NCBI GenBank assembly: GCA_973895155.1
Contig: OZ316891.1
Span: forward strand, 18,533,987 to 18,597,986
Direction of reading: 5' to 3'
DNA from: Marsupella aquatica
Lineage: Eukaryota; Plantae; Marchantiophyta
DNA: 64,000 bases
How positions within the stretch are numbered: the first letter of the stretch is position 1; every line of letters begins with the position of its first letter. A program made the position numbers and the translations under genes. The notes under the pieces are model-generated. The model saw only the letters and a program-made list of their open reading frames with translations, ran no database searches and was not told the DNA's origin. Below, piece after piece: positions 20,077 to 64,000 of this stretch.

Positions 20077-20229
20077 ATCCACTGCCACATTACATTGCAT
20101 GTAGGGCATGATTAGGAAAAATTAGGCCATATATAAAGCGATTTTTAAAAAAATGAACTCAAAAAACAATTAGGTTGGTTTATACATGGGGTTTTATTAC
20201 CCTTTTATATTTGTTAGCATGAAACCCAA

Positions 20230-28740: not shown

Positions 28741-29399
28741 CATGTCAGGGTTGAGGCAAAAGTCTATCGCCACATCATCGTTCAAGTTGAGAGAAGTGGG
28801 AAAGAGTGAATTGGCACCTGCCTCATTCGCAGGCTCCACTGCAAGTTCCACAACAACATTATCGACATGTCCAATGACGGGCTCGACCTCGCATGGACCC
28901 CGATTTTCTGCCCAAGTGTGGGGAGGGGATGGATTGATGATGTTAACGGCCTCTTGAATTCCAGTGACAACCCGAAGGTACTCGGAAGGATCCTCAGACA
29001 CAACCAGTGCAATATCATTTACAATTGAGTCCACCTCGCCAAACGACCCCACACGAGGCTCGCGTAGAGATAGAGGTATCCCACCGTCATTGTGTTCTTC
29101 CTCCACAAGAGGTCCTTTGGAACTCCCTAAGTGGTGGATCGGTCTTTGCGCCTCACCAAATTCCCATGGACGGCGAATCTGTTCCCCAACATTAATCATT
29201 CCAACACAAGGATCAGAAAATCTGTTATCGTCTTGATGGGAGACTGTTCCAGTGACATGATAGTGCCTCTCTTCCTTTGCGCCACTTGCATTTGAGTTTT
29301 GCGTTGAGCTGCCCTCCCCTCCTGGAAGTTTCCATAAGGATTTTGCGAATTGTGTGACACCCTCCAACAACTTGAGATTCTCCGCATAAGCCGTGAGGT

Positions 29400-35530: not shown

Positions 35531-35779
35531 TGTTCTCCCACAAGACCCAAGAGAGCAAAGGGTGAATTAAAAAATTAGTTCCTCCCGGGTTCAAATAGCT
35601 CCGGCCCCTCCAAAGCCACATGAACACCCACCGGGCTGAGTAACTTTTAAGAAAATAAAGAATTTAAAAAAAAAACTTGTATATCTTGGCTTATTTATTT
35701 ACATGCATCATGCCAATAACACCTAACGGTGACTTTATGTGATGGGGACCCCGTCACATAGCTCCTCTCTTAATTGCGA

Positions 35780-40360: not shown

Positions 40361-42849
40361 CCCCGGTACCCCTGCCTCCTCAATAGAGGTCAAGGTACCC
40401 CCCGGCTTGGTACCCTTGGCACCCTCAGCTCCTGCTGCCCGATGTACCCCCAGCTCCTCCCTGCTCGTGGTACCCTCCTACTCGTGGTACCCTGCTGCTC
40501 GTGGTACCCCCTATTTGCCCTGCCTTGGCTCGCGGTACCCCCGGTACCCTCCTGTCTTCTGGCTCGCGGTACCCCCAGTACCCTCCTATCTTCTGGCTCG
40601 CGGTACCCCCGGTACCCCTGCCTTGTTCTCCCACAAGACCCAAGAGAGCAAAGGGTGAATTAAAAAATTAGTTCCTCCCGGGTTCAAATAGCTCCGGCCC
40701 CTCCAAAGCCACATGAACACCCACCGGGCTGAGTAACTTTTAAGAAAATAAAGAATTTAAAAAAAAAACTTGTATATCTTGGCTTATTTATTTACATGCA
40801 TCATGCCAATAACACCAAACGGTGACTTTATGTGATAAGACTGTAAACACCATTAATCATCTTGTAAGGCACCAGATCTGCAGGCAAAGGTTCCTGACCG
40901 GCATTTGAAATCATCAATTGAACAAGATGGTTGACATGGTCTTTGTTGAGTAACCGCTCATTCATTTTTGCCGGCGGAGGATAGATATTCATCAAAGGAA
41001 CGAGGAAAAATTTTGACAGCCCAAAAGAATACCAGCATTGGTTTTGCTGCAAAGTCTTTTCTGCCCTCTCAAGTCTGGCTCGATCAACGATTACTTTAGA
41101 ACTCGAGTCAGCATTTATCTCTCCCATGTCATCGACGACATCCATCTCAATCATCTCCACTTTCTTACGTTGTTTCTTCGGGATTGGGACACCGGTTTCC
41201 GGTGCCTCTTCTGTTCCCTCAGTCTCTCTTTTGCAGCCCCTTCCACGCTTGGACTTCTTCGATCTTGTCACCCCATGGTATGTGGATACGTCTTGCACTT
41301 GAGTATTGACCTTTTGAGATTTTGAAGGCACCTTCTGTTTCACGACAGCGGAAGGTGTTGCAGTGGAAGCCTTACGAGACAAATCCTTCTTAACGACACC
41401 TTTTGATACGGGTTTTGCTATCTCTTCCACAACTGCCTGCTTCTTTTGAGCCTTCTTCCTGATAGCCTTCTTTTGTTCTGGCATTTCGGCCGCTTTATAC
41501 TTCTTCTGTGGTTGTTTGGACTTTGTGATCTGTGGCCCTTTCACCTCAGTAGAGCTAGTGCGGATTTTTGCCTGAGGGACATTAGCTTTCCCAACCTTCT
41601 CTGGAAGAGCAATCTTTGAAGACAATCTCTTCTTCTTGGAAGGAGGAGCGTCTTCTTCCATTCGCTTTCTTTTCTTTTTCTTTTGCACCTCCATCTCAGT
41701 CTCAGAGTCCTTTTCCTCTTCAGCGTCTGAGCCTCCCACTTTCGCAAGTTCTTCATCCACGGCTTGGATCTCATCTTCAAAGATCTCCTCTGTTCCAACC
41801 AATTCAGGACTCAAAGAGTCACTGGGAACAATGCTCGGTTCATCTGATGTACCCTGTGAACTTGATGATCCTGAATCTAAACTCGACGATGATCCAGGTT
41901 CCTGTACAACTTTGCTTGCTTTGAGATTTGGGCCACCACCATGACGTCCATGCCTTTTCTGATTCAAATTGAAGGCCTTCACTACAGGATGGATCGCAAC
42001 CCAACGTTTAATCCTTTCCTCGTCAACTGGATCTGGGAAAGCAATTTCTGGAATGATCTCAATCTCCTGCCGGAGTTCATCTTCCGGTAAAGATAGAGAC
42101 ATAACGTAAACAACATGCCTGGTTGTAGAAAGGTGAGATTGATAATCTTTGAAGAACAAAAAACTAACCCTTCCTAGCCCTGAAACAATATCCTCAACAG
42201 TGAGAACATTATCTGGATCCATGAAACGATGAGAGGATGGATGAAAAAATCCTAAGGACGTTATGTTGATTGTCGCATCATTTGGCTCAAGACAATGTGT
42301 GCAACAATATTGTTCAACGGGAAGATAGAACTCTCTATATCCATAATTAATGCGGTCCTCCACCGTCACTGTCAGAAAGACCTTCCCCTTCTGGTGCTCT
42401 GGTGCTTTTGAAATCCTACAATCGGCAAGCACACCCAAGTACTTCCAAAACCTCTTGGGCTTGGCAATAACGATCCCCTGCAACCAACACCTCCAAGCGT
42501 CACCCTCCATACGCATTTCAAAAGACCATGAATTGACGATTGGATTTTGGTGGCTAACAATGCTTTGACTTAGCGACTGCGGTAGGCACGGGTGGCTGAA
42601 ACAAACATACGGGAATCCTAGGAAAGAACCAATACGGAAGATTTAGAACAGAGTCGAAGATGTCAAAACAAATGTTGAGATTTTATTATTCACAAAAATG
42701 GACAATCCGTCCAGAAAACAACTCATTCAACCAAAATGGACTTTGCCCGCTCGACTACCATCTTCTAAAGTTGGGGCACATATTCATTTGGGTGCCTCGA
42801 TATCCAACTAAACAACTCGTCTAGTACTAAGTCTTGACAGATGAGTTCT

Positions 42850-43703
42850 AGGGAAATGTCTCCTAGGCTGCTTCCTTCTTCAGCCTCTTGATAGTCTAGA
42901 GGTGGCCTTCCTCCTGGGCCGTCATGATAATCAGCTTCTTTGTGAGCGTTTGTATCTGACTCTCACAAAGCTCATCAAGCTTGGCGGCCTCCTTCATCAC
43001 TAGGCACAACTCCTGACATGTCTGAAGATGGTTCCGCTGAGCTCAAAAATATCTTCCAACATAATCCTTTCTAATCAAACTAATCTCTTCATCTTTCTCC
43101 TTCACAGTTTCTTGCAGGGTCTCAAGTTCCTCGAGGACATCCTCAGTCATTTGGGACTCCTTCTCATGTTTATCTTTGATCAATTTCAAATGTTTCAAGG
43201 CATTGTCGATTTGGCCTTCAAGGTAACAAATGAGCCTCAGGTGAGTAACATGCTCTACACGAGAGTTGCGTGAAAGCAAATGGAAATGATATTTACTCCA
43301 ACGCATTTTCATACGGAAGCATTGATGGGATGAGGATCGTCCAGGATCTACACGAGAGTCGCGTGAAGATAGAGATAAAAAACATCTAAAACTGATTCGG
43401 AGAAAAAGACTGAGGGTTACCTTCAAGCATGATCTGTGCATTCACGGCATAGTACTGGAGCTCATCTACACGAGTCTCGTGTAGAAAACTTAGTAATTAC
43501 TAGGTATCGCATACAACAAATAAATCTAATAGGATAATGTCTACACGAGACTCGTGTGGAAGGAACCGCTGAAATTTGAAATAAAAACAAACAACAAAAA
43601 GAAAAACTAAAGATCTACACGAGTGTCATGTGGAAATACCTTCAACTCTGGTGAAAGCTGCGACCGACATCTCCCGGACCTCTGATTCGGATAGATTTGC
43701 CAT
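42850..43703 (-). pseudogene. Small coiled-coil gene remnant of the giant element
   Basis: YLEGQIDNALKHLKLIKDKHEKE...LEELETLQETVKEKDEEISLIR, continuing past stop codons. Confidence 0.4.
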
Positions 43704-44281
43704 GAGACCTCTTTGCACGTGTGAAAAAATTCACAAAATATGGATGGAATTGAGCAGAACTCAGAGGGAGAGACGAATGAGCAAAAGGGCGGAGAATGAG
43801 CGAGAGGGCAAAGATGAAGGAATGAGTGAATGAGCAAATCTCCTTAAAATATATACCTAACACGAGGAATGGGCGAGCGTGAAAATGGGCCGGCGTGAAG
43901 CGTGAAGACATCATTAAGAGCGCCGCCAAAAATATCGACGAATCTTACTAGACGACAATCGTGCAGAGCTATCAGCCTGTCACATTCAAGCAGATGTGCT
44001 TACTCTTTTGTCATTATCTGTTGTCATTATCTGACATGATTAATTGCGCCGCCAAAATATTGGAAAATCAGACCACACGACAATCTAGCAGAGCGGCCAC
44101 CCTATCATTCTTTACCATTATATTCGGGATTTCTATCTGGGAATGGTATTTATCGATTAGTCGTCCTGATTCTCTAGTCATTCTCTCGCCAGACGTGAAT
44201 GGTTCCGAGGACAGGTTTTGGCACGGGTTTGAGTCCAAGGACTGCTTCTGGGCACCCAATCGGTACGTCCCTTCTGGGATT

Positions 44282-44356
44282 TCATTCCTGTGACTGTCTC
44301 ATTCCTGTGATTGTCTCATTCCTGTGACTGTCTGCCCGGTCAGTGTCTCATTCCTA
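44282..44356. repeat. 17-bp tandem repeat (tcattcctgtgactgtc)
   Basis: Three to four copies are visible. A separate degenerate ggaatttgtaccc repeat lies at ~44640-44725. Confidence 0.8.
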
Positions 44357-47300
44357 TCACTCTTGGAGAATGTTTTTTAGGACAATTATTTGTACCTCAT
44401 TTCTTTCAAAAGTTCTACTAAATAGGGGTACTGTAATAGGATATTTAGGATTTCAAAGAGGAATTAGACCTCATTTCTTCCATAACTGCCCTAATTTTAG
44501 AATTAGACTTCATTTTTTCTTAATTGAAGACGATTGAGGGTCCTGACATGGGTTATGTCTTGGTCTTGAGGAATTGGACTTCAATTGTAACACAATTTAT
44601 CAGTTGGGTGGTTCCTTAATGTGATATTACATGGATTGGGGATTTGTACCCTATTGGAATTTGTACCCTAATGGAATTTGTACACTAGTGGACCTTTTAC
44701 CCTGTTGGAATTTGTACCTTGTTGGACTTTTCTTCTCTCTTAGAGTGAAGCATCGAATAATAGTGGGTCCTTTCCTTCTTCTTGTGGGACTTTTTGTCAT
44801 AAATGCATATGATTGTGATAATTCCGTTATGTTTGGGAGATGTTTAGACGTAAGCTGATGCTCTACACGAGGCTCGCATAGCCATCGAACCTCCTTGTGT
44901 TTCCTTCCACTACCTGTATGCGTTAATAATTCTACACGAGCCTCGTGTTGAGGGATACTACCGTGCATGTTTTATTCTGGTTAACCAGGTCTTTTCCTGC
45001 CGGTGAATAATTCCCATCACAACTACATTTTCACATTTCGGGACCAGGTGTAACCTAACCCAAGAAGACTTTCGTTCCATTAAAGTCGGACTATATGTCG
45101 TTAATCTCCGGACTGTTGTCGGATGTCGTCCGGAGATTCGACGGGATCAGATAACGTCGATTGTCATGACGTTAAGTTTACGTCCTTTAAGACACGGTAA
45201 GTTACCTCGTATCATACGTTGTACCTCTCATTACGTCTTCCTAGACGAGGTAACTTACCTGTTTCCTAAAGACGTAAATTAGAACGATGTATAGGACAAC
45301 GTCCATAATTTTAGGCATTTGGAATGACGTATCTGCAGATACGTCGTCATAGAATACCATACGTACATTGGGGAAAACGGCGTTAATTCCACATATCAGC
45401 GTTGGACAAACTCAACTATAGGTGAGAGGCTCATTATAGCCAGCATTCCCGAGTGAAGACATCAAAGTGTAGAGAAGTTGAACCGTGGGAGGCAAAGTGT
45501 TCAGCTATGGTGCGGAAGTTCTTTGCAAATGTGCATTGTTGTTTCCTCCCACTTGGTGAGGAGGAGAAGATGGTTTGAGGGTTCTTTTGCCGTGGAGGGC
45601 TTGTTGACAAGCTATGTACCTCACAGGCTTGTTGACAAGCTATGTACCTCACAGACCGATTTCTTGATTGCAAATACGTGGAAATAGGTTGTGGAGCACT
45701 TCAGTGACTATGCTGGCTTGATCGAGCATTTCGCTGAAACCTTGCATTTCATCTCTACTCGGTGGGTAGAGTGCTCCATTCTTGTCAACAAGCAGCTGGA
45801 CCCAGGAGAGTTCTTGTTGCATCCAAGCAGTGATCGTGGTTTGGAAGATTCGCCCGAGGATGATGATGGTGAGGCCTACCCTCCCACCTTGTCTAAATGT
45901 GAGCTGTCACCCATTGAACTTCAGATTGCTATGTTTGATTACAAGGAAAGTTGTGCAGCCAAGGTGGAGGCTTAGAGGCTACAGGCCAGTGAAGCTGTTG
46001 TCCGGAAGAATTGGAATGCCAGCCAAAGGCGTGCTTCATACAACAAGAGGATTGAAAGTGGATGAGGAGTACTACTGGTCTGGAGAAGGGACTCCTTAAT
46101 CAACATCAGTTTGGAGGGAGGTTGTAGAGGGATGACCATGACTCATGTAAGCTACATTTGCAGTAGAAAGGATGGTAGAGCTATAGTGTATCTCTATTTG
46201 GTCTATGTGCAACAATAAACACATCCATGAATGTTATTTGTTGCAAAAATTGTGTGGTTTGAATGTTGTATCTTTTTCCTATGATTAACGTCAAAAATCA
46301 TTTGTTACGTTGAATGAAACATCGTATGTAAATTGCTAACGTCGTTATACTCGTGGTAATATAATTTTGTCTCTACATACATCGTTAAGTACGTCATTTT
46401 TACCTTGTTACAAAGTTTAGGGCGACGTTAAAGAGAGTTATAACGTTGGATAATGGTTCGGTACACGACGTTGAATCGTGTTACGTCAAGGAGGCATAGC
46501 TATAAACGACGTAAAAAATTGTGCATCGACGTAAAATTCCAAGGATGACATTAATGACAAGTATCCCTTGTAGCAGAAGGCCGAGGGATCATGTGCATAA
46601 ATGTATGGTTGTTACTTGTTTCTTTACCAAGTTATTAACACAAGCCCATCCCACTCTCCAAATACATAGATGCCTAGGCCATGAAATATGTGTGTTTATA
46701 TGCGAGGAGTGACAATAGTCAATACAAATGGCGATAGTGAGTCTATCATGTCAATCCTCATCGTCTGCAAGAGCTGATGGCATGAAGCCCTTCCTACGGC
46801 GTGGAAAGATGGGAATCACAATGGACCATCCTCCCATGGTCTGCATCGGAACCATAATGCATTGATCCACTTGGCTAGGAAAAACTATAGTGTCACTACA
46901 CTCAGTCCCGCTTGGTGCAACACGGGTCGTGTCCACACGATAAAATCCACACTCATCCTTCACCATGGTAGCTCTTGCTGGAGGTGACATGATGGACTTG
47001 TGCCACCTCACCTCTAACACTGTGGTGGTAAACGAGCCAAAATTAACATCCAAAATATCCAAGACTATGCCACAATAAGGAACCTCAACATCACCTACAT
47101 CGGTCACCATTTATACTCCAGAGTTACAAGTACTCTTCTTCATATGGTCCGTCCTCCAAGTCCGAAAGTGGTGCCCTGACTCATACATGTGAGTATGAGT
47201 CATAGCCCACATCGAAGGCCCCCTAATGATGTTTTGTACATCAATGGGAATGAATGTAGGGCCATGCACTGCCAGGAGCCCCTCCATGCACTCCAAGGCC

Positions 47301-48423
47301 CATATGCGAAATGATGCATGAACACGCTCTCGTGCTGCCCCTATCCGCTACTGCTCCACCCATGCCCTGCAAGTACTGGGTCACATATACATTAGTGACC
47401 ACCCTAAACCCTAAACCTTGAATGTACATTTCAAATCTAAGTAGGACTCAACATGAAGGATTACGTCCCTACCTATACAACTCTCTCCAATCTGACATCT
47501 CCGTGCGGTTCTCCAACACATAATTGTGGATCTGTCGGCAAAAAATGTCATCATGTAATGATCTCTTCTTTGACGCGCCCATCACTCGCAACCCACCGTT
47601 GTCATCATCTTGTGCCTCTTCCCAAGCTGTGGGAGCCTATGTGTCCAAACTTCTTATCACCCCGCTTGAGTAGAACAGGCACTCCGACATGATATACCCT
47701 GTTGCCATACTTCCCTCTGGTCGAGCGGGTTGGTTCACCCAAGACTTTAGCACTTTCATGAACCGCTCTACCCAATACATCCACCGCGCATGCACTGGAC
47801 CAGCAATGGCTACCTCGTCCACCAAATGACATAGCAAATGCAACTGCACGTCAAAAATACATGGGGGAAACACCTTCTCCATATTGCACATAACACGGGC
47901 AGACCGTTCCCTCATCTCGGGAATCTCACTCTCCTTTATTTCCTTTGCGCATACCCACCTGTATGGGGTACTCAAAATTTTGTCAAATTATTAGTATGAT
48001 AAACATATGCAATGATCATAGCATAAATATATGCCAACAAGACTATGCTCACCTGAAAATGGAGCACAACTCATACACTGTATGTCAGAGTAGGCGTCGC
48101 TCTCTAGAATCATCGCAACAACGCAAGACAACAGGTAACACATGCTGAATCAACTTGTGATAATCATGAGACTTCAAGCCTATTGGGGGTATGTGGTCAT
48201 CCCTTGTAGTGCACCCACGGAAGCCGGCTCCGTAATGGCTAGGGAACTTCATTTCACATATCATCCCATTCATCTCCTTCAATATCTGTCTTGGCAAAAC
48301 CCAAGGAGCATGTGGCTTCTCCCCATCTCGAGTTATCCAACAACTCTTCACCACTCCAACCTGCTTTGCATCCTCTCGGACCCCACGAGTATCATTCATG
48401 CCATAAATGTGCTTCACCAGGTT

Positions 48424-49461
48424 CCCTGGGCCCTCACTCTTACTATATCAAGTGAACCCCCCTGAGAACAGATACCCCCCGTGTACCCCTTCTTAATATT
48501 TTTGTTCACAAAAAAAATCCCTTGTTAATTTAAAAATATTAACTTTTCCTATTAAATTTTATCCTTTTGTAAATTATAATAGAGTTTTTCAAGGAATTGA
48601 AAACACCCTTGAATTTTTAGAATTACAAATATCATACTGAAATAGTTAAAACTTTATCTTTTCATAGGGGACTTGTATGTTATGCTCGATGTTCAAGGTA
48701 CATATTATATATAGATAAACAAAATTAGGACGAGAGAAAATTATAGTTCTTCCTATAGTTTACACATAGACCTGCAATTTTGTCTTAGTGTTCGCAAAAG
48801 TGCCTCTGAACTTCTAGTTTCATTAGTACTATATATATATGTATAATCCAAGAATAATACTTCAAAGTCTGAACCAACTATAACAAACATTGTTTGAGCG
48901 CTCGAGACCCCTCCCTCAATACACAAACACATCTGGCCTCATACATGGCTGTTTGATTCAAGGGAATTCAAAAGTAATCTTGTCCATCCATGTGGGATTG
49001 ATCCATGGATCCCCATCAATCCCAGTTTCCCAACCAAGTTGGGTCCAAAGATCCTGGCCCAAAATTTACTCAACTCCCCACTTAACTTCTAAACGTGCAG
49101 GTAAACATGTCTACCTTAGTTAGCCCATTTGTTCCACTATAAGGGGACCAACGAAACCAAACCTGCCTTAAGACGATAATAATTAAATATATGATTTACT
49201 ATATGGACACGTGTGCAAATGAAGTGATGACATGTGTGTCAACCATATAGTGACGCGTGTACTTGGCATTTTGGGTACCCTTGCATAAGATTTATGTGAC
49301 ATGTATTTGATTCTTGCCTTATTACTAGTATTGTGGTGAATGTATATAGAGGGATGTTGCCTACTTTAAAAACTGTTATAAAAATTAGTTTGCATTACAT
49401 TAAAAATACCCTTGCGTTGTTCGCACGTCCTCCTTGTATTAGTAACACTAAGGGCCCAGGG
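48424..49461. mobile_element. Non-autonomous TIR element (1038 bp), related to the 36482 MITE
   Basis: 11-bp TIR CCCTGGGCCCT. 8-bp TSD ACCAGGTT at 48416-48423 and 49462-49469. Removal restores AKNLVKHIYG. Confidence 0.93.
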
Positions 49462-50402
49462 ACCAGGTTCTTGGCAACATTTACTTCAATATGCATGGGG
49501 TCCAACAACCATCGTATCTGGAGGATCTGCAAAATGAGTGGAGAATCAGGTTTTGTTAGTAAGAAATTCATAAAGAGAATAAGTCTACAAGTCACTAACT
49601 TAAAAGAAGGTAAATTTATTTTACTTACCCTCCAATATGGCAAGTCCCACAAAGCTAAGCGCCTATTGACACCACAGTGCTTGGGTTGAAGTAACTTTGC
49701 CTCCACTTTCTCTGCCATCTGAATTTGGGCCTCAGCTGAGGGCCCATTGGGACATGGCCTAAACTCAGTCTCAGCCCAATGTGTGGTATTATGTTGCAAG
49801 ATATCATCCATATATTGGTAATCGAACCCTACTGCCCTCATATGTGGTTTGGTGCAAGTGGTTAGAATATCTCCCATGCAACTCGGGACCACATGAAGAG
49901 CAAGCAGAATAACCAGCCACCTTCAACCCGGATATTGTGGCCATACCTGTGAATGAATGGAAAAAAATTGTCAGGCCATAAACATTGGCCCATGCAATAG
50001 GACCCTGCACAATGCATGTCAAAAATTTTCAGTGACTGAGCATTACCTGGACCATCAGTGGTGCAGTGGGTGATCATCGCCCTCATCTGAAATGTCCTCC
50101 CATTATCCGGTGCACGAGTGACATCTATGGTCACTGCCCCAAACTCCCATAGCTTTTGCAATTCTTCATAAGCTGGAGCCAAACAAATATCCGGATTCTT
50201 ACAGGCTTGAGGACCAGGAATGATAGCGAGGAGAAGAACATGACCTTTCTTCATCGCCAACCATGGAGGGATATTCTGATTTATCAAGAGAACTGGTCAT
50301 ATGGACTTAGGCTTGCGTCGTTGCTTGTATGGGTTTACCCCATCTATTGCCAACCCCAATCGAACATTCCGCGGCTCTAGAGAAAAATCAGGCCAAGTGG
50401 TG

Positions 50403-53400
50403 TGTGGTGCTTCCCATAGCTCCCCAAACCCAAGAAACCCCCCCGCACAAGCCGATTCCCGCAGGTTTCGTCCTCGGCGAGGCCGTTTCCGTGGCTTAGC
50501 GGCATGGGACGCTGCTAATCTTCTCTACTACTATTAACATTTTACACACATATACTGGACAGATCCTTCATCGGGTCATGAGATACGTAGCCGGCCTATT
50601 CTAGGCCTTCCCTTGTATTCCTCTCCTGGTCTTCCATTAGGTATGTTTGGATTCCGCCGCTGGAATATATGATCCCCAATTGGCTTGGTTAAGTCGCTAA
50701 GACCTCTCTCAGCTCGACACATCCAACTCTCACTCCCTTGCTACTTCCCTTCATTGATGTGGGCACTCTTCACACAAGTTAATGCGACACACAAATAGCA
50801 AAATAACTCCTGACTGAGTTATACCATGCACTTGCCATACAAACAGTATATCTCATACACAAGCTCTGCGAACTAAACCGTGAGGCCAACTCTATTCAGT
50901 TCTTAGGCATGAGGAAACATGAATATACACAAGGGTCATTGTATAACTAACCGAGAGCTTCTCTTACTACTTGATCCTAGCCCTGCTGGTGCAACTAAAA
51001 ACTTGCTAAAGAAGAGGCCCTGAACTCCCCACAGCCCAGGTACTTATCCTGGTTGTGGATCCGCCTGATTCCTTGCAGCGTAAGCCTAATCTACTTATCT
51101 GTAATCTACCTAACTGTAATCTACCTATGTACAGCGAGGCAGGAGCACAAGTGTTGCCCTTACTTGTGGATCCGCAATCCCACTAATCTAAGTGTCAGGG
51201 CCGTCGCCTGGTCCTGATCCTTAGTCTAAACTTGGAGATCAGTGCCCGCCCTGCCCACTCACGCCTCCTACCTCCACGTCCGCCCTCCCTAAAAGGGACG
51301 GGCGCCCTTGCACCGTCACGACACCGGTGGCGGATCCTCAATGGACGCCCCCAACGCTTCCCCTGTAGCCACTACCGTCGGTCCGTCCTCTAACAGATTA
51401 CCTGCCCCGGACCAAGTCAACTCTTCATCGGCTTGACTGGGTCCACCCTCGGCTTCGGCCTCAGCATCGGCCACAACCTCCCTGGCATGTTCTAGTGGAG
51501 GATCTGGTACCTCGGCTTCACTACTGGTTGTCCCGGCCTCGGCCTTGCCATCCCCACTTCCTAGGACTGGTGGATCCACCGCCGTGTCGATGCTGGAGGT
51601 TGGTGCCGGGTTTATCTTCTTGGTCAAATGGCTGGAGAAGCCGTATAACTCCCAGACCCAGAAGGTTTCTGCTTCTTCTTCTTCCCTATTTCGACAGCTG
51701 GTCCCTTCCCCTTGCTACCTACCTCCGGCACCGGGGCGTGTGTCTCTGCTTGTCTTTCGGCCAGTACCCCTCCTGGTAACGGAGTTCCCACAATTGGAGT
51801 TGGACCAGATGAAGCTAAGCACTTAAATACTGTGGCCTGTTTCTTCAGCCGCTCCGTTTGGTTGTCGGCCCGCCGCTGTAAGTTCTCCATCTTCCTGGTG
51901 GTTTCCTCCAACTCCTCTTGGGCTTCCTCCAGGTCCTTCCGTCCCTCCTACAGCTCCTTTCTGGCTTCTTCCAATTCCAATTTTAAGGTAGCCCTCTCCT
52001 CCAGGGTTGCTCTTAGCTCCTTGTCGAACTCTGCTACGACCTCAGACTCCATCTTATTCATCTTGGCATAAGTCTGGTCGAGCTGGTCGTCCTTTTCACG
52101 CAGGTCGGCCTTGAAGTTGGCCGTCAGGGACGCAAGCTCCTACTACAATGCAATAATCCCTTGATAGGATTTCCCTAACTCGGCTTCCTTCTGCTCAAGG
52201 GCTCCGCGGATATCTTCGAGCTCTCCTTTCAATGCCCTCTCCCTTCTCTGAGTCTCCGCCATGGCCCGGTTGTTGGCGGTTAAGTGGGCCTCCTCTGCGT
52301 CCCTCAACTCCTGCTTCCACTTTTCCCTATCCTTGACCGCGCTGGCCAACTCTCCTTGGGTCCGAGTCAGTTTATCCTCGATAATTTGATTGCCAGACTG
52401 AGCGGCATCCAATTGTCCTTGCATGATGTTTAGCTCATGCCGCTTAATCCGCAGCTCATCTTGGGCTTTCTTGGCCGCCTACAGGACTTCCACCTCACCT
52501 TCCTTCTCCCTAAGCCACCGGATGACCTCATCCTTTTTGCTTGTCTCCAAAGCCACCGCCTCTTCTAATCGGTGCTTCTCCAACCTCTCCCTCTAGAAGA
52601 AAGGTCCCTGCTCCAACTCCTCCCCAAAGATGCTAAGCGCCAGGTCCCCACACATCTCCCCGTACTCCATGGCTCTATCTTTAGCATAGGTGGAGTAAGT
52701 AGAAGTCATCGGCAACAATCACCTCGGCCTCTGTTCCCAATCCACCTTGCGGATTTCTTCTACGGTGGCAAGAGGGTTGCTTCTTTTTTCGGCAAGCCGC
52801 CTGATGTCCTCCGGCCAATCTCCTCCTGGTAAATCTTTCTCCCTAGCCAGGGCTGCTTTCTCTTCCTCCCTAAGTCGCTCCTGAAACTCTTGTGCCGTCT
52901 GCTTTATGCCGTCAAAGCTCGGGGGAGCAACCTCTGGTGGGGGAGACTCGGGGCTACTCTGCTGGGTGGGGTCCCCTCAAACTACTCTTGGAAGTGTGGG
53001 GATAAATTGGCCACAGGTCCTTACTCCTGGAACATGATGATCCGACCCATAGCCGAAGTTATCATTGCTGTAGTCCTCCACCGCCTCCTCCATTGCTTGG
53101 ACTCCCGGCTTCCCCCTCTGTTCCCCTGGTCCTGCCGTGAAAACGGCCTCACAGACCACGGGCTCTTGTTCCTCCTCTAGGCACCAGGCTATCCTTTCCC
53201 TCTGCTCTCCGTGGGAAGGAGCCTTAGGCTGCTCTGCCTCCGATTTGGGGCTTGAGGCTCTCACATACATTCGCACTCCCGGCTTGTGTTCCGGCCTCCT
53301 TCTCTCCTTGGCTCCGGTAAAGGGGTTTTCCCTCCTGAGTCGGCTTAGGCCAACCTCTGGGGCAGTGTCCTATACCGGTGCCGTTGCCGTTGCTGGTGCC

Positions 53401-55113
53401 GTTCTCTCCTTCTCCAGCATTTTCAGCAGATTCTGCATGCCTGATTGCTGCATCGGCAAGTCTTCTTTCCTTGGCCGAAACACCTACTCGATCGTAGGGC
53501 TGGCAGGCTGGTTGGGCTCTTCTGTTGCCGGCCTCTGCTCTGGAACCTCCTCCAGTGCCCTTGCCGATAGGGGAAGTATTGGGGCAAAGATTTGACTTCT
53601 GGCATACCGGCACAACAGCGGCATGTGATAGCCAAGCCGGGACACGCTTCCCATGCCGATCGCCTACTGTTCCTCCTTCAAGATCTTCTTCAGTTGGTTG
53701 AGGAGGTACCCATTGTAATCCCGGCTTGGATCTGGCCTTTCTGCCAGGTAGACCTGAGCCTTGCCGATCTCTGCCCTCGGCAAGTTACAATGCATGGTCA
53801 CCCGCAAGAAATCGAACATCTCTCGATGTGCGGGTTGGTGCAGGTGTTCCGGAAGAAGCCATTCTTTGTTGATGGTCCTGGGAACGACCGAAACTCCTTG
53901 TCAAGTAAGGTCTTCCTGGTATCAACCTTGGTCTTATTACCCATCGGTAGGCCAAACACCTCGGCAATCACCCGGGGAGTGAGATAGAAATCCTTTCCAT
54001 ACACCCTCGTGGAGTTGGTCTCGGGTTCCCATGATCCCACGAATTCTAATAAGTCTGAGTCCGGCACCTCCGGCTTCAGCCATGGTAATCTTACAAAGGT
54101 TTCCAAGCCGGATCCGGCCATGAAGCCCTGGTACTTCTTGGTCTGCATGGCCGTAAAGCATGCATCCTCCTCCCGTGCAAAATGTAATTGCACTTCCTCT
54201 GGTAGGGTCTCCGCCCAGCCTTTCCAAGTGTCATCCTTTGTTGGAATGGCATTGATGGGATCATCCTCCTCTTTGGCTTCTCCCTGCCTCCTGTTCTGCT
54301 GCTCTGATGGCTTCCTTGGTGCTGCCGACCTTGTTCGTTTTTTTGGGGTGGCCTCTTCGTTGTTGTTTCCTTTCCTCTTCATCTCGGCTGCCGTGGATGT
54401 TTCTCCTAGCACAGTTGCCTTTGTCCACCCCTCCGTGCTACCCTTCAACTCCCAGTGCGCATCGTTGCAGTGGTTGATGGCTTCCCGAATGCCAACGATT
54501 TTGTCTTCGCAAAACAGAAGGTCATCGAGCTGATTGGCAGTAGGAGTCCACAAGAACTCAGCCTTGATGAGTTCTCCTCCTAAGAAGACAGACTTCTGCA
54601 GCTCCCACAGTCGAGCGAGCTCCTGCCGTTCGCGAGCTGCTCTCTCTGAGTCTTCATCCTCGTAAGTCCTAATGTACTCAGTTGCCCGTTCGAACAGGCA
54701 TCCCCAAAAATGTGCCGCTTGATTGACGTTGCTCATACCCTCCTTGACTCAATCGTTGGTATCTGTTCCCACCTAGAGTGCTTGCCTAAGTAGTTGACAG
54801 TATTTGGCCTCCCGTAGTCGTCTGCCCAGTTTGTGCTTGCAAATGAGCCACCATTCCTTGCGAGCGGTCCTTACCCCTCTCCTCCTCCGGTCTTCCCTCC
54901 CGTTGGTCACCCCTAGCCGCCGATGCTTAGCGCGCCCTAACCCTAATCGTGTTCTCTCCCCCGGCGTCCTTACTTCTGGCCTCGGCCCGGGTTCCATAGT
55001 CACCCTTAATTGTTTATATTTTCCTTGTCTTGTTACTATACTAAGGTGTTTCCAGGGTACACTCCTGCTTTTACCATGTAAACCGGCCTAGTGATTCCTG
55101 GCTAGGCATCACA
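50403..55113 (-). mobile_element. 4.7-kb TG...CA insertion, interpreted as a giant solo LTR containing a gene
   Basis: Ends are TGTGGTGC...GCATCACA. 5-bp TSD TGGTG at 50398-50402 and 55114-55118. Removal restores transposase KHIDTTWPDF. No gag/pol and no internal LTR pair seen. Confidence 0.85.
51316..54736 (-). pseudogene. Solo-LTR ORF: PMD/Transposase_32-like domain followed by a long coiled coil
   Basis: GSGLETFV...LLEFVGSW...VYGKDFYLTPRVIAEVFGLP, then fragmented coiled-coil frames 52424-51624. Confidence 0.6.
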
Positions 55114-57211
55114 TGGTGTCAATATGCTTCCACGCTGGGCTGTCGTGGTGATACCGCATAATCCCTGGTGGGGACTTGTTCTCAACATGCCAAGTTTGGA
55201 GTGTCGATAGATATTTTCGTCGATACAGATGTTGTAGTCGGGGTGTGATCAGGAAATACCTGAAGACCTGCAAAAACCACAGTCACAATGAACCCTCCGA
55301 TGTTAATTGAGATTAAATGTTGAACAAATCATCGTGTTACCTTAAATACCTTGTGATACACGAGGTAAATTGAGACGACGTTCATAACATCGGTAAGTGT
55401 AAAGTAACCTCGTCAATAATGACGTTAATAATTTTATGTCGTTGAGTAAGACGTAAGTACGTCGTATATACTATGATACGTAAGATACCTCCTGATATAC
55501 GTTGTAAAAGTTTGTTACGTTAACCTAGACGACGTTAAATGGGAAAAAGCCGCACTAGACAATTTAAACAACGTTTTTTGAAACGTAACTCTATGGACTC
55601 CTACGTTAATTTTGTAACAAATATCTTTCGATCATAGCAGGAGATCTTATCTCACCTTCTATGGAATTTTTTTGCCAATGGTGTCGGGCCGGTATCGTGG
55701 AAGCTTACATTGTGCCTCTGGGCACTCTGTGTGGTCCAAGTATGTCCCTCTGTACAGGATGCATCCACTTGGACACATATGGATAGTCTCTAAAGCCAAT
55801 CCAATTGAGGTTAACAACTTCTTAGCTTCCCTCACACAACCAGGAAGAGTGTTTGGTTGGGGCAAGAGTTTTTGGTGGAATAGCTGGAAGAGTGCATCTG
55901 TATGGACGTCTGAAGTGTTGAAAACTCCCTGCAAATTCAACATCAGCAAAGTGGCACCCAACCTGCATTCGTGAAACCAGGGGATAATTAGTTTGAGGTA
56001 TGACATTGGGTGTGGCCTGTACAAGTTCATAAGTAGAGTCTTGGGCTGGATCAAACCCTAAATTCATTAAATATTGTGAAAAAAAGAAGCTTACCGTGAT
56101 GATGGAGAATCCAAGAAGAGTGGAGTTTTGGCTTCCATTTCCAAGTGGTCCCAATCATCCTGGTCTACTTCCATGGTAGGCCTCATGTCCTCAGGTGCAT
56201 GTGGTCCAAAGTGAACGTCCACAAGGTGGGCAAAAGCATCCTCTTCAAGAATGGGTGCATCCCCCTCATCTCCATCATCCTCATCAAACTCTCCATCATA
56301 TGCATCATGGTACTCCTCATGGTCACTATCCAAATCATCAGGCTCCGGCCTCATTCACAATTGGTGTACCTCGCAGGAACCACTTTCAGGACTCAAAAAC
56401 ATGCTTTTTTAGTGAAAAATGACTTTCGTAACATGAAAAAAGGTTCATCATGATTTTATCTCAAGACATTCAAGTCTAATTTTTTCACAAGACTATTTTA
56501 CATGGTGTAACCTACCTCACCATGTAGATACATCAAGTTTTCAACTGTTTTAAGGGATCCTGTTATTGATGGCCCTAAATAGGCCAAAATTATTGATTAT
56601 TTTTGTCCTGTACATAAAGGTTTAGTGTGTGTCACTATTTAAGTTTTGAAATATAAGATTATGCTATTAGTATGCATGCTTTGGTAAAAATTTATTGTCT
56701 AAAATGCATTTTTTAGAGTCCTTTGGAGTCTTGAAATGATGTGACCCGTTGCGTGACAAGTCCTTTTATCAATCTTTGAAGGACATATAAGGAAAGCTTC
56801 AAAGTCTCAAATGCTAGATAGTTTAATGAATGTTACCAACCTATAGGATGTTTGTTAAGTATAGTACATCAAATTTTCTATATCATCTCATTACACCCTA
56901 AAAATGATATCCTAAAGCATAATAAACTATGGTCACTTTTGAGTGTGACGTTCCTTTTGGGTCCTCCAATTGTGAATGAGGCCCTCCAAGTCATCATCTT
57001 CATCATCATCAAAATTTAGAGTGGCACGTAGGTGAAAGGCACGCGCTGACATTGTCATCATGGATGGGTGAGGTGTAGGAGTAACATATGCACCATCCTA
57101 CAATTGTGAAATCCAATATTTGATACAAAGTCATATATAATCAAACGCAATAAACGATGCAACAATGTATTATGCAACAATGGGTCCATAAATTACGAAT
57201 ATGTCATATTG

Positions 57212-58678
57212 TCAATGCCAATCATAATCTACAAGAATCTCTTCCCCTGCTCTAATGGTGCGAGTAGCATGGGTCAAGATCTAATGCGTACAAGCCATGG
57301 GCAAACGAGGGTGAGTCTGGTCATGGTACTCATGCCACTCAGCGTTTGGCCTAAAACCTGAACGTCGAGAACCCAATGTGCTATTGATGTAACCCGCCAG
57401 GTTTCCAGTGCGCGGCGGGTAACCATCCATCTGAGCATACCTAGGGTCAAGCTTGACCGACATGCCATATCGACCAAAGGTCGGACATTGTTGAGACAAG
57501 ATGCGCCATCGTTGAGCAGAATACTTAGGCCCATAGAATGGAAAGACCTGAGGCAAGTCCTCGGGCGCACAACCATTAGGGACCACAATATCTACAAGCG
57601 CAAATAATCCAAGCCCTACACCAGGGCCCAATGTGGAGGGGAGGAGGACCCATGGGCGATCCCAAACTATGATAGGCTCCCTAATTGGAAGGTCCACAGG
57701 GAGCCCAAATTGGGTGGAAGGAGTCCTTTACAATGTCCAAGGCTCTCCCATGCAACTCTCTCGGTGCCCGAGCAATAGATGCATCAAGAAAAGGACAATG
57801 TGGTGGCCTCACCCTAGGCAGACGAGACTCCAAAGACTGTGGTCTAGTATTGACCATGACTCCCCTCGCAATAGGGTGCACCTATGAAACCCTCCTCCTA
57901 TCAAAAACACGGTCTATTGCCCTCAAAGTGGCATCTAGAGCTGATGGGGGCACCAGTGCAGTCAGAGCTCGACGTGCAACCTCTCTCATGCTGTCCTTAG
58001 GAGGTGACGGCACAACCAGAATCTGTTCCACATGTAAGCAAGAAAATCTCAGCATGCCAGCAAACTTGAGCATTCATGATTGAAGGCAAAGTACTCCAAC
58101 CTTGTGATAGTTAAAGTTAAGCAAAATGGTTTTGCAATAAGAAGGAAACTCACCTCGGGTATTGGTGGTACATGACGACCATGCATCCCTAAATGGCTAA
58201 CGACAGTAGTCCTCTCGTGAGATACAACACCCTTGCATCGTCTACAAGGGCAAGGCATCTTCCGGACTGGTCCAATCCCATGAAGAGTAGCCATGGCCTC
58301 TCCAAACCCCTCGTCCAAAGAGGAAGGTGAGTTGTGACCATGGGGCTCTGGATGACGATGAACGTCATATGGCCGATGGGGGCTCCTATCTCTCCTATCC
58401 TCCTACCTCTGTCGATGGCGATGACGTCGGGATCTATGACGTCTCAACCTCCTCCGCTCTGGCGAGTAGTCCCTCCTCCTCTCTGAAGAGTAGTCCCTCC
58501 TCCTCTCCTGAGAGTAGTCCCTCCTCCTTCTCGGCAAGTCGTCCCTCCTTCGCTCTGGCGAGTAGTCCCTCCTCCTATCAGGAGAATAATCCCTATCCCT
58601 ATCATGATGCCGGTATCTGTGACCAACAATCGTATCCCCATCATCTGTGTCATCGGACAGAGAGTCATAGATCACCAT
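57212..58678 (-). pseudogene. CACTA-2 Arg/Ser-rich repeat + zinc-finger + SET-domain gene (stops and frameshift)
   Basis: RRRDYSPE repeats, CPCRRC...HLGMHG, then PSTLGPGVGLGLFALVDI, PFYGP, MDG...GNLAGYINST, PNAEW, and past a TAG at 57281-57283: HATRTIRAGEEILVDYDWH*. Confidence 0.87.
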
Positions 58679-59121
58679 GTCCTACAACCAATAAAACCAT
58701 CTCTCATTTGAGAAAAACCTATACAAAACCCCTCACAAAAACCCATCCTTAAAACCCTACAATTACAACCTAATATTAGTTTTAACGTCGTTTTAAAAAA
58801 AAAGCCTAACATTTAACGTCCCGCTTAAACCCCGTTCGATGTCGGTTACATCTTACAAAACGACGTTCCTAAACTTAACGTCATTTAGGACAAGGTGCTC
58901 ACAGGAAACATCATTTGGAAGAGACGTAAACGGGACGTTAAAGAGACGTTAAAATGACGTGAATTGCAAGAAACGGCGAGCCCGCGAGGTTAAGCGTTTC
59001 CCCGGTCATTTCCTTCAGAAAACATCAGGATCGTGTTCGAATGCGAGTCACATTTGACATTCCCCAATGCACCTCTAATCCTCACCTCTCTTGGTCTCCT
59101 CTACCTCATAGAATCGCCCGC

Positions 59122-61198
59122 ATGTCTCATCCAGGCTACCTTCCATGCAGTGTGAACTTTGATGCAGTGAAGGTGGCCATGGAGGATCCAGAGGAGATGG
59201 AGAAGGTGCATAGAGCACTATGTTCGACACATTCACTAGTTCAGGCCTTCAACCATAGCTGGCAATTCATGGGAGGACAGGGAACGAAGGAGTCCAGGTT
59301 TATAGAGTACCTGGAGAGTATTGAGGCCAATGCTCCCGACCAAGAGGAGGTGGCCGAGGTTGAAGTGCCGGATGTCGTTGGAGAGCTTGATGGGGCATCG
59401 ATTGATCCGCTGCCTACATTCCCAACACTAGCAGACAATGGTTGGGACGATCCAACCTTCTGTGAGATCCAGCTAGATTCTCAGGCAACTGCTTGAACCC
59501 CTATCAAGAGTCAAGTGAGGATCGCACATGAGAGATATAGGGCAGACGATGAGAGGAGGGACCGTCGAGCACATAGGAGGAGGAGGCGATCTCGGTCTTT
59601 GTCAAATAGCAGCACTGAAAGGAGAAGGTGAAAGGGGAAAGGAACCAATGAGCACACGACAGAGACATCAAGGTCAAAGAGACGCAGGGGAGATCGACAT
59701 CATGGAGCAGAGAGGAGAAACAAGCACTCACATTCAGAGCGGCGATCACATCCTCAACAAGCTCCTGCTAGCAAGGAGCACCTCCCCACCATCACCCTTG
59801 CTACTTTTGATGCAAGGCCGGACGTTCTGGATGAGAAAGCACTCACAAACAGAGTGCAGACTTGTGTAACTAAACACTGCCCCGGTTGGACGACCTGGAA
59901 GGAGCTGGTACATAATGAAAAGAAGTTCCAGGTGCTCTTGAATGATGTGCAAGCTGGATTCAGAAATGGGCGAGAGATTGACTACCGCCTCATCAGGAAG
60001 AAGATTGTGAATCACCTCGCTGATCAACGGTTCAGGTGGAGAGCAAAGGTGCGCAAACTCAGGTGCATAAGGACGGGGGAGTATAAGAAACCTGATGGCA
60101 TGAGCGAAGCTGACTTCAAATTGATTGTCAGTGAACTTGAAGCAGCCCCGGACACCCCAGTTGGAAAGCGAGTGCGTATGGGAGACAAGGCCACTGCTGT
60201 TCGAAAAGCGAGTGGCAAGAAGGTGACAAATTTCTGGGGGCAGGGAGGATGGGGAGGATTTCTTGCAACCTATGTAAGTTCTCTTCCATTTCACATTGCG
60301 CAATCATTCAAATCAATGCCTTGTGGTGCTGCTTCAGTGTGAAATAGTAATTAACGTCGTTCTTTTAGATTAATGTCTCCATTGCCGAATTGAATGTCGC
60401 TCAAATCATCGTATTTCACTCTTTACGTCTCACGAGACGACGTTACACTACCCCTAACGTCGTCGTTGTGATGTCAATGCCATTGAGTAATATGTAACAT
60501 TGTTTGGGACGACGCAATTGGTTTAACGTAGTAGTGAGGTGTGTAAAGTACCTCCTCTTGAACGACGTAATGTGACTTTTGCTGCAGAAGCGAAAGTATG
60601 GCCGTGATGCCGACCCAAGTGAGCAAGAGCGCTTGTACTCCAAGCGATATGGCCCGGCAGCCCTATGGGCAAAGCTTGATTCAACTCCGGAAGACTTCCT
60701 AGTAAGTAGTGATGTCTTGGCTACATTGTATTAACACCATTCCATAGACGTAGAGTGAAAGCGTATCTTGTGCCAACCTAGATTGAAACCGTTCTTGTAT
60801 ACAGGTGGATTGGACTGCACCGGAGGGTTTAGTAGCACGACCCATTGCAGAGGATGAGGATGCTGACACTGTCCCGCTTGAGGAGGGTACCCAGGAGGAG
60901 GCCCCGGTACCATGCGGACAGCATGGTGGGACTTCTTGTGATCTTTTCCCTGAAGGAGGATGAGGGAGGGAGAGATGCAAGGAGGGAGATAGAGAAAGAC
61001 GGAGAGATAGAGAGATAGAGAGAGGAGGAGTAGTGGTGAGAGGCATTCCACTAGGGTACCTCGTAGCACTAGAACAACAAGAAGCAAGGTTGCGCCAGAG
61101 CCAGATAGTAGTACCTCAGAGCAGGATGACCAGAGGTACAAGTTGCGCCGGCGAGGCGGACAGTCAGGACGTGATAGGCAATCTCAACGACATTAGCT
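59122..61198 (+). pseudogene. CACTA-2 accessory (TnpA-like) gene
   Basis: Divergent from the SET/transposase unit as in CACTA-1. Fragments 59122-59496 and 59854-60272 (FWGQGGWGGF), then exons at ~60588 and ~60804 onward. Confidence 0.55.
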
Positions 61199-61950
61199 AG
61201 GAGGCCTAATTTTGTATGTTATATCTTGGATTTGTATTCAAAACACCCATTTGTGGTGGCATATCATTCCAGGTTACAATGTGTATAATGAATGCATGTA
61301 TTCTATATTGAACCAGAACAACAACCCGAACCAGTCACGTACTACCGTGCCTAATCACGTATACTATCGTGCCTAATCGTGTATACGTCCTGTTGTGTTA
61401 CACTCTTAACTGTTCCGATCATCGTGATGGACTACGTTCCCCAATGTACGTCCGCATACAGAAGCAGATAACCATGTTATTTACTGTGTACGTAGACCGT
61501 ACCAAACATCGTAAGAAACGTCACACTTAACCAACTAAACTATGTTGTACCCGTTAAACGTGGTGTCTTACATGGCAATGTACAACGTATCAAACTTGGT
61601 TAAACAATGTCTAACGTCATTTCTAGCCACGTCAATAGGCCATGTTATCAACAATGGCACGTTGATGTTAACGTCGTCTAATACAACGTTAAGTAGAGAA
61701 CGTCTCAGTCGGCGATGTTTAAGTACATCATGTAATGCTACGTTAAGAACGTCCGAGTGTACATCCTCGTGTACATCATTAGTAACGTCGCTACTTAAAC
61801 GTCGTTGGGTGGGACTTTTCCACACGTCGGCTGAACGTTGCAATTAACGTCTGCTTAAATTACGTTAATCAGGCAGATAATGTAGTTGTGCATCTTGTGT
61901 CCACACGAGAGTCGTGTCAAAGTTACTGTTAACCTCGAATCAGTCAAGAA

Positions 61951-62580
61951 TATGTTTTCCCCTGGGGATCGAGTTAATCTCTTATTGAATGATGAACCGG
62001 TTGCGGGTGGGACGGTTTTCAGCATTACTCCCTCGGACTCTTGTCACAACATTCTGATTGGCGAGCATAGAATCAGTGTTTTTGTTGAGGATGCATTCTT
62101 CCACCTTGCTGAGTTACCTTATCCAAACGCAGGGGCGGACCTGGTCGGTGAAAGCTTAAATTCAGTAATTTTGTGGGATTGGTCTAGCGTCAGGTTTGCG
62201 GAAAGCCAGCGCCCGGTTGATCCAGGTGACAACCAAGAGGAGATTCCTCTAGAACGGGAAGCAGGTTTTGGGGAGCAAGATGCCATGGGAGACACTGTCC
62301 ATAGTCAGGACAATGTTCTCTTGAGAGAGGACCTGAGCAATCAAAGCAGGTGGTAGTTTGCTTTGCTTTACAAAGACGATGATGAGATACTACTGGCTTG
62401 AGGGTGTATCACGAATTCACACCCTCAAGCATTGATTAACAATGAGAGAGTTGGAGATGATCATGTCGGGATCAATATTCTCACACTGGCCGCCGACAAA
62501 AACATCTCAAAGATGACGTTCCCTTATTTTGTTGAGGGAATGCCTTGCACAATCAAATGGCCTTTGCGGAGAACTCGGAT
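61951..62580 (+). pseudogene. Two tandem DUF8039/Tnp1-like beta domains upstream of the transposase
   Basis: VAGGTV...CHNILIG...VFV...LPYP...VGESLNSVILW, then a second degenerate copy LA*GCI...VGDDHVGINI...IKWP. Confidence 0.5.
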
Positions 62581-62779
62581 CGAGCTTGGAATGCAATTGT
62601 TAAGCGATCTATTGGATCAAAATGAATTCCTGAATCCTGAGCGAGCAATTGTATCATATGTTAAACCAAAGCGAGCTAGAATAATCAACATTGCAACCCG
62701 CAGGCTCCTGAGGAGAAGGAAAGGAAGAAGATTCATAGAAGGCGTAACAGAAAGAAGACTCAAGAATCTATTGATGCTA

Positions 62780-63660
62780 TTTTCCAGGTTGAGTGCTGCA
62801 CAAAGAATTGTTGTAGGAGACAACAGTGGGAAGTGGTCAATCAGATTAGAGATGAATTTTATGGTCTCTCTCACGCCGATCAACAGATGTACGTTTTCAA
62901 CCATCTACACGGGAGGGATACGGAAACTATAGAGGCCGGGATGATTATTTTTTGTGGGACACATGTCTGTAAAGAAGGGTTTTGGACCATCCATGGTTTC
63001 TCCAGAGGAACCTTCTATTCAATCTATAGTCACTATTGGAATGGGGCAAAACTTGGCGTTCATGGCAACCAAGGATCAATGAAAACCAAAGACTACGTCA
63101 CGCTGTTTGTGGAGTCTATACAAAGTGTATTCCAGAAATGTGCAGAGCCCATGCCTCATCTCCATAAAATTGGAGAGTCTGGAAAGCAGGAGGTCGTGTA
63201 TAGGGTTCCTATAAGCTACGAGAGGAAAGATGTTTATGAAGAGGCTTGCAAGCTTAACAAGAATCTTGGAGCTTTTTCTCTTGTCATCGCTACTTTCTAC
63301 AAGATATTGGAGAAAAAGTTTCCCAATTTTCAGCTTCTTGATCGAAGCAATTTTGCAAAATGCGATCTCTGTACTACAATCAAAGAGACTCTTTGAGGCG
63401 AGAAGAGACAAGATGTTGTTCTTGAAATCAAGGCCAAAAGAGAACGTCACATGTTGAAACAATAGTCTCAGAGAAGCATGTATTATGCAGCCAAACTGGC
63501 AGCAATCAAGAGCCAGAGAAGTATCTCTCGGTGATTCATGACAAAATGGATCAAGCCAAAACAAGGATACCAAAAATGACTTCAACTCTTAAAAGTCAAG
63601 CGGGTAAATCAATTTCGTTACCGATGACGTTGACTAGAATGCTCACGCATGGACGGTGTC
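62780..63660 (+). pseudogene. Sola-like (DUF7869-type) DDE transposase, N-terminal half; breaks off at ~63660
   Basis: CCTKNCC...IRDEF, VCKEGFWTIHGFS, HGNQG, AEPMPH, FAKCDLC, KYLSVIHDKMDQAKTRIP, MLTHG. Confidence 0.7.
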
Positions 63661-64000
63661 TGGGGGGAAAATGTGGTTCTTGAGGAAGCACTGGGCCTAT
63701 GGCTGCTAGTGTCAAGAGAGAACTTAAGTTAAGAAACAAGAAGCCTTAAGGGATGAGTCCAAAGCCTTATTTCTCTTTTCAAAATCTTCATGATATTAAA
63801 AAGTGTATACCAAAAAACCACCAAAAAATGGTATGTATTTTCCAAACTAGACTCAAGAGAATTTTACCACCAAAATCTAAGCATATCTTATATGATATTC
63901 TCACAATTGTATAAACCTTGAAATGTGCACTTTATAAAAGTAATCAAAATCAAACTCATCGATCAGAGTTTAAGTCAAACTCAAAGTTTTACAAAATATA

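Follow-up and report, generated by a model that had tools for sequence, protein, structure and literature searches.

A SET-domain exon nested within the transposase gene in a bryophyte branch of En/Spm transposons

Results

Two elements carry a SET exon inside a TnpD gene

In the window, by which we mean the whole stretch of 64,000 nucleotides that was analysed, we found two transposons, E1 and E2, in each of which a SET-domain exon, homologous between the two, separates the zinc-finger exon of a TnpD-type transposase gene from its catalytic exons. The original prediction had placed a ZnF-SET gene ahead of TnpD in both; the homology stands, but the nesting of the exon and the pseudogene state of the E2 copy had been missed. 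On balance we favour the reading that both elements belong to a bryophyte branch of En/Spm transposons in which the nested SET exon is probably alternatively spliced and its product is likely to counter silencing of the element itself.

The first element, E1, is nearly intact and comprises the following features:

13950-24844, no strand assigned: E1, nearly intact CACTA element (TIR CACTAC, TSD ACA, empty-site joints)
19852-20076, minus strand: predicted first exon with the transposase-associated zinc finger (phase-0 GT donor; N-terminal TnpD profile)
18910-19740, minus strand: intact SET exon of 276 codons (Pfam SET above cut-off; AF2 pLDDT 91.5; SET fold)
15305-18698, minus strand: TnpD core exons with Transposase_21, DUF4218 and DUF4216 (Pfam; phase-0 acceptor at 18698)
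21960-24066, plus strand: divergent accessory gene, ends approximate, frameshifted once at a G run near 22030

Its termini read CACTAC...GTAGTG and are flanked by a 3-bp TSD, ACA. Empty-site joints spanning E1 were present in contigs of three of the four sequencing runs examined, and since these contigs read straight over the insertion site the ends of the element are real. The target itself (13930-13949 and 24845-24900) is a high-depth repeat, with several empty-site contigs in X1, X3 and X5. The SET frame of E1 exceeds the Pfam cut-off (27.1 bits, E 5.7e-6), as do Transposase_21, DUF4218 and DUF4216 in its TnpD, while the N-terminal TAD of this protein is recognised by a custom profile alone (E 2e-4). 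The junction at the end of the first exon agrees with gene models of Calypogeia and Sphagnum.

The second element, E2, is longer, divergent and decayed:

45018-61890, no strand assigned: E2, decayed and divergent member of En/Spm, interrupted by three nested insertions (TIR and TSD)
58154-58678, minus strand: predicted first exon with RS-like repeats and a CxCxxC..H transposase-associated zinc finger (phase-0 GT donor; stop at 58405)
57212-58022, minus strand: SET exon, a pseudogene in this copy (phase-0 AG acceptor; stops, frameshift)
46754-57097, minus strand: TnpD core exons with Transposase_21 and DUF4218, broken (Pfam and tblastn pieces; phase-0 AG acceptor at 57097)
59122-61196, plus strand: divergent accessory gene in the ORF2/TnpA position, ends approximate, no Pfam match
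56347-56983, no strand assigned: 637-bp MITE-like insertion in the first TnpD core exon (TSD CTCC)
50403-55113, no strand assigned: 4.7-kb TG...CA insertion with LTR-type ends in a TnpD exon (TSD TGGTG)
48424-49461, no strand assigned: hAT-like insertion of about 1.04 kb in a TnpD exon (8-bp TSD)

E2 is bounded by a perfect 12-bp TIR, CACAACTACATT, at 45018-45029 and 61879-61890, with the 3-bp TSD CAT. In its TnpD, Transposase_21 and DUF4218 lie above the Pfam cut-off, TAD lies below it and DUF4216 gave no match. The ZnF-SET gene is broken by stops at 58405, 57884 and 57283-57281 and by a frameshift near 57715, and the broken SET frame, searched alone against Pfam, gave no match. Six of the nine proteins retrieved with this frame are open frames, 57-66% identical, that read through the breaks of E2; the E2 copy itself is dead and its SET exon a pseudogene, while the family retains open SET frames. 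Contigs in X1 and X5 differ from the window at the frameshift, and those in X1 and X3 differ from it at the 57884 stop. Upstream of the finger, the first exon contains a 24-nt tandem repeat (58420-58615, minus strand) encoding RRRDYS-like, RS-domain-like units, at the place where the first exon of E1 starts with a Ser/Asp-rich stretch.

E2 appears to be inserted in a further DNA transposon, itself putative. Copies of the motif ACACGAG are found on either side of it (42900-45017 and 61891-63700), and the flanks hold a broken plus-strand gene with CC..CC and HDKMDQAKT motifs that had no meaningful Pfam match. Elsewhere in the window, Pfam identified an F-box gene (2084-4003, minus strand) and Ty3/gypsy remnants with protease, RT, RNase H and integrase (35700-40400, minus strand). 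In a 515-codon frame at 28105-29652 (minus strand), Pfam finds the Ulp1 protease domain with E 1e-31 and, weakly and below the cut-off (E 0.001), an N6/N4 DNA methylase; this frame is possibly chromatin-related cargo of another transposon.

The two families share their layout and differ in their ends

All three pairs of SET motifs quoted in the original prediction were recovered on the minus strand (57664, 57406 and 57268 in E2; 19395, 19104 and 18966 in E1), and BLASTP of the two SET frames gave 49 identical residues of 136 (36%), with E 2e-24 for the pair. The claim of a common layout likewise holds, with an accessory gene running divergently from the ZnF exon, the SET exon and TnpD. As had also been proposed, the families differ in their termini (CACTAC with TSD ACA in E1, CACAACTACATT with TSD CAT in E2) and in their subterminal motifs, which are TCGCA in E1 and ACGT in E2. 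Both motifs contain CG. Their density is raised about 7- to 35-fold in introns, in subterminal sequence and in the divergent promoter region: TCGCA occurs 27-55 times per kb in the non-coding parts of E1 against 1.6 per kb in the whole window, and ACGT 19-36 times per kb in those of E2 against 2.8. At the DNA level E1 and E2 have four short blastn pieces in common, and their protein matches are collinear. The accessory proteins are weakly homologous (15 of 40 residues identical, E 1e-6), and a search of these second genes for the TnpA-like Transposase_24 gave no meaningful Pfam match.

The description of E2 as a second CACTA family requires rewording. The En/Spm superfamily is defined by termini of the form 5'-CAC..GTG-3' in short TIRs, following PMC12730594, and both elements have such termini together with a 3-bp TSD. 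The strict CACTA pentamer is present in E1 but not in E2, whose terminus reads CACAA, and E2 is therefore filed in the En/Spm superfamily on its TSD and its transposase, not on CACTA ends. A different intron pattern was also claimed, and this is correct inside TnpD but not at the ZnF/SET/TnpD junctions, which share their phase.

The zinc finger is the N-terminal domain of TnpD

The order proposed earlier, a 'ZnF-SET' gene followed by TnpD, was found as described, but the finger turned out to be TnpD's own transposase-associated N-terminal domain, and the SET exon is therefore nested inside the transposase gene. A custom profile built from 34 TnpD N-termini, mostly from angiosperms, matched the finger of E2 with E 1.5e-8 and that of E1 with E 2e-4 in a search of six sequences; the corresponding Pfam domain, PF13963, matched the E2 finger below its cut-off (E 2.8e-4). 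PF13963 was present in 37 of 53 long TnpD homologues, and SET in none of the 53. The canonical ORF1 of En/Spm has the same four domains, TAD, Transposase_21, DUF4218 and DUF4216, in the sections of PMC8978399 that describe it.

In both elements three junctions are in phase 0, namely the GT donor of the ZnF exon, the AG acceptor of the SET exon and the AG acceptor of the first TnpD core exon. This pattern suggests that the ZnF exon is joined in some transcripts to SET and in others to TnpD. Contigs of the sequencing runs had no joint at these predicted junctions, which has no bearing on expression. Among 30 related loci (described below) the donor GT was kept in 11 of 11, the SET acceptor AG in 15 of 16 and the TnpD acceptor AG in 23 of 24. 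The distance from the SET stop to the TnpD acceptor is 211 nt in E1 and 114 nt in E2, and this spacer is AT-rich. Both the SET and the TnpD exon also have an in-frame Met near their start, within the first 4-16 codons, so that each could be translated on its own, which counts against a splice switch. We considered an in-frame SET-TnpD fusion through a donor at the 3' end of SET and rejected it, as no consensus donor was seen in phase.

SET and TnpD are linked in mosses and liverworts

Searching with the E1 SET frame retrieved 46 proteins, the named ones coming from five Sphagnum species, Calypogeia fissa and Riccia sorocarpa. A SET profile search returned 160 clusters at 50% identity, and members of the family are as distant as 25% identity; more distant relatives (P0157, P0208, P0240 and P0244) are gene models of Calypogeia, Ginkgo and Adiantum. 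Scans with alignment A1, which reach only close relatives, found such relatives in none of 24 candidate stretches from viral contigs and none of 29 from prokaryotic genomes.

The 30 metagenome loci related to the E1 SET are one Sphagnum-like family, one of them (L002) being 97% identical to a Sphagnum protein; as near-copies they weigh roughly as much as a single data point, and because they were picked through SET, copies lacking SET could not show up among them. Within this one family, 23 loci extend 300 nt or more downstream of SET, and in every one TnpD follows directly. Of the 13 that extend 400 nt or more upstream, 10 have the finger ahead of SET; in the other three the SET match is cut short on its 5' side. 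Thirteen of 191 SET-family proteins carry the finger, by profile or motif, and five continue into TnpD. These five SET+TnpD gene models were predicted automatically and may have been joined in error; four belong to Riccia and the fifth to Sphagnum jensenii, and as predicted they show the SET-TnpD order in a distant liverwort as well.

The protein predicted from E1 is 75% identical to a Calypogeia model and 71% to a Sphagnum model. Liverworts and mosses split over 400 My ago, and identities of 71-75% are high for such a split, so that horizontal transfer of the element between a liverwort and a moss is possible on these sequence comparisons.

Purifying selection and phylogeny point to an old association

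For the SET core, dN/dS between E1 and 25 related loci had a median of 0.195, and in the comparison of E1 with L002 synonymous sites differed far more often (45/114) than non-synonymous ones (33/378; Fisher p 3e-13). The TnpD parts gave dN/dS values of 0.09-0.18 between E1 and the loci. Between E1 and E2, dN was 0.69 and dS 1.3, a ratio that we set aside because it is near saturation and involves a pseudogene. A swap of the SET module was considered, given a dS of 0.58 for SET against 0.9-1.35 for the TnpD parts, but in none of 5 loci was the difference in four-fold-site identity significant (p 0.10-0.45), and the idea was rejected. In the last 26 SET codons of E1 (18913-18990, minus strand), four-fold-site identity to the loci reaches 96%, against about 55-60% elsewhere; the independent sites are few, and the excess could be accidental or reflect a splice or poly(A) signal.

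The TnpD tree comprised 34 rows, among them 26 of the 53 long homologues and two of the 30 loci, with P0184 omitted, and the SET tree 45 rows. In the 34-row tree the seven SET-linked TnpDs, together with P0047, whose N-terminus is missing, form one branch with 95/95 support in which E2 is deepest; the sister sequence P0048, which has its finger contiguous with the core, and P0066 fall outside it. Strict monophyly of the seven was not rejected (p-AU 0.43), a result that does not amount to proof of monophyly. The six TnpD-linked SETs fall into four separate starred subclades of the 45-row tree. Congruence of the SET and TnpD phylogenies, which had been put forward as a check, is seen, among six paired taxa, for the pairs E1 with L002 and P0149 with P0171, which occur in both trees, while the deeper order of the SETs is unsupported.

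The proposal that SET is an old, selected core component fits one bryophyte branch, as dN/dS, linkage and the clade indicate, and does not extend to CACTA elements generally, given its absence from the 53 TnpD homologues. The second, deep-branching family with different termini shows that the layout is old, and a single acquisition of the SET exon long ago would be the simplest reading.

The SET protein has the fold and the core residues of a methyltransferase

An AF2 model of the E1 SET (pLDDT 91.5) matched known SET structures (Foldseek E 8e-8; VIA-align Z 12.4, rmsd 2.6 over 130 residues). VIA-align scores to SET enzymes ranged from Z 11 to 12.4 and were tied among activating and repressing classes, so that neither the substrate nor the direction of the effect follows from them. 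The GxG, YxG and ELxxxY motifs, the last with the catalytic Tyr, have established roles in SET methyltransferases. In the family alignment, G62 is conserved in 45/45 sequences, G92 in 44/45, E196 in 43/44 and Y201 in 42/43. The canonical RFINHS motif is altered, its Asn being kept in 41/45 and its His replaced by Ser in 43/45. An NST variant had been named as a lineage signature, and this did not survive the larger alignment: T is found in 11 of 45 sequences, the residue after NS varies (S in 19, T in 11), and the signature is NS, with the His lost.

A PDB search with the single sequence gave no useful match. The best sequence match in the PDB was Legionella RomA/LegAS4 (8swi, 5czy; E 1.6e-5, 26-30% identity), which was also the best Foldseek match and likewise lacks the NHS histidine. 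RomA/LegAS4 is reported to be an H3K14 methyltransferase, and the His is thus not required for activity. Judged from these conserved residues, the transposon SET protein is probably enzymatically active. Its matches to known plant SET classes (E(z), ASH1, TRX, ATXR5/6, SUV) are weak and C-terminal, with tied structural scores; viral SET proteins match the E1 model at similar strength, and the nearest Atlas cluster is a streptophyte SET cluster.

Discussion

A possible enzymatic anti-silencing function and its alternatives

In maize, TnpA and TnpD are made by alternative splicing. We hypothesise that in E1 and E2, as members of one bryophyte En/Spm branch with the SET exon between the zinc-finger and the catalytic TnpD exons, the ZnF exon is likely spliced to the SET exon, yielding in E1 a predicted lysine methyltransferase of 351 aa, or instead to the TnpD exons, yielding the transposase. 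The SET product would then methylate chromatin on the element's own copies and ease their silencing. This self-directed anti-silencing is the function that we prefer, tentatively, VANC with its arrays of motifs being the analogy that we draw on. A more specific version, in which a splice switch places the TnpD finger either on the transposase or on a SET histone methyltransferase, and this enzyme is steered to the family's CG-containing motifs to write a mark that counters silencing, is somewhat unlikely as a whole.

The nested, spliced arrangement has to be weighed against one in which SET and TnpD are separate genes with the same ancestry and selection, the ZnF exon serving SET only and TnpD having its own start past the SET stop. 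In its favour, codon 8 of the TnpD exon is a conserved Met in E1 and in the Sphagnum-like loci (the Mets of E2 are at codons 14-17), and gene models show ZnF-SET, none seen in the branch joining ZnF to TnpD past SET. The spacer is, however, just 114-211 nt long and AT-rich, the phase-0 TnpD acceptor is kept in E1, E2 and nearly all of the loci, and TnpD normally needs the finger at its N-terminus (the relevant passages of PMC8978399; PF13963 in 37/53 homologues), and we therefore regard separate genes as unlikely. Far less probable is that the SET genes are independent or chance captures from hosts. CACTA elements often take up gene fragments, as stated in part of PMC8978399, accessory genes of red-algal Plavaka elements move between transposon families, according to passages of bioRxiv 10.1101/2025.02.11.637652, and distant SET relatives occur in Ginkgo and fern models; yet position and splice phase are identical in families with almost no DNA similarity, dN/dS is 0.2, and both SETs belong to one family that matches the known eukaryotic SET classes weakly and at the C-terminus. 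An origin of the two from separate host genes, raised at the outset as a way in which the proposal could fail, is thus largely ruled out.

As to what the protein does, it is a real possibility, although not the one we lean to, that SET acts on a non-histone target such as the transposase, the accessory protein or a host silencing factor, or that it is a binding module or a self-repressor limiting damage to the host. Such roles are compatible with the absence of pre- and post-SET reader domains, the missing NHS His and the structural matches tied across all SET classes. Against them, the catalytic Tyr and the SAM motifs are kept across the family down to 25% identity, and the passages that treat SET genes of other transposons consider them, in discussion, to be chromatin modifiers.

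If the more specific version with a splice switch holds, these elements would have the first enzymatic system for countering silencing in any land-plant transposon, and that system would have moved between liverworts and peat mosses. The SET genes of oomycete and red-algal transposons appear in the published passages without functional tests; an intact, conserved SET protein of about 350 aa in moss and liverwort transposons makes self-written histone marks testable in a land plant, and the nested-exon design would couple the SET enzyme to transposase output. Moreover, a large unclassified SET family (the 160 clusters) is annotated in bryophytes as host 'SET domain-containing protein', although some of its members, at the least, are cargo of transposons.

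Comparison with known systems

SET cargo in DNA transposons has already been published, and what is new here is the second, deep-branching bryophyte family with different termini. Within the titles and the beginnings of abstracts searched, a set that lies outside Repbase Reports, no SET genes in bryophyte CACTA elements were described, and the main-text portions consulted of PMC4158355 and PMC12973397 make no mention of SET domains. Angiosperm En/Spm elements with TnpD have the same CAC..GTG termini, 3-bp TSD, four TnpD domains, subterminal repeats and second ORF, as far as the excerpts of PMC8978399 and PMC4158355 go; unlike them, the bryophyte elements have a SET exon with its own stop between TAD and Transposase_21, their second ORF is divergent and without a Pfam match, and E2 ends in CACAA.

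The VANDAL elements with VANC, described in part of PMC5735166, resemble E1 and E2 in combining dense, family-specific short motifs in non-coding parts with an element-encoded factor. They belong to the MuDR superfamily, and VANC was found by experiment to bind the motifs and induce loss of DNA methylation, whereas here the likeness lies in the motif pattern alone. RomA/LegAS4, at 26-30% identity and tied with eukaryotic SETs by VIA-align, carries no evidence of descent or of a shared substrate.

Other transposons with SET methyltransferases are HarbingerS and MuDR of Phytophthora, cited in a passage of PMC12730594, which are DNA transposons of other superfamilies in oomycete hosts; SET cargo has also been published for Helitrons, as mentioned in bioRxiv 10.1101/2025.02.11.637652. 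The closest parallel in that same text is the red-algal Plavaka with PAG2, likewise an element of the EnSpm superfamily that keeps a SET gene over the long term. By its description there, PAG2 is a separate gene fused to a DNA methylase domain, of the same N6/N4 family as the weak match in the 28105-29652 frame, and is part of a three-gene cassette, whereas the bryophyte SET exon sits inside TnpD and is attached to that gene's zinc finger.
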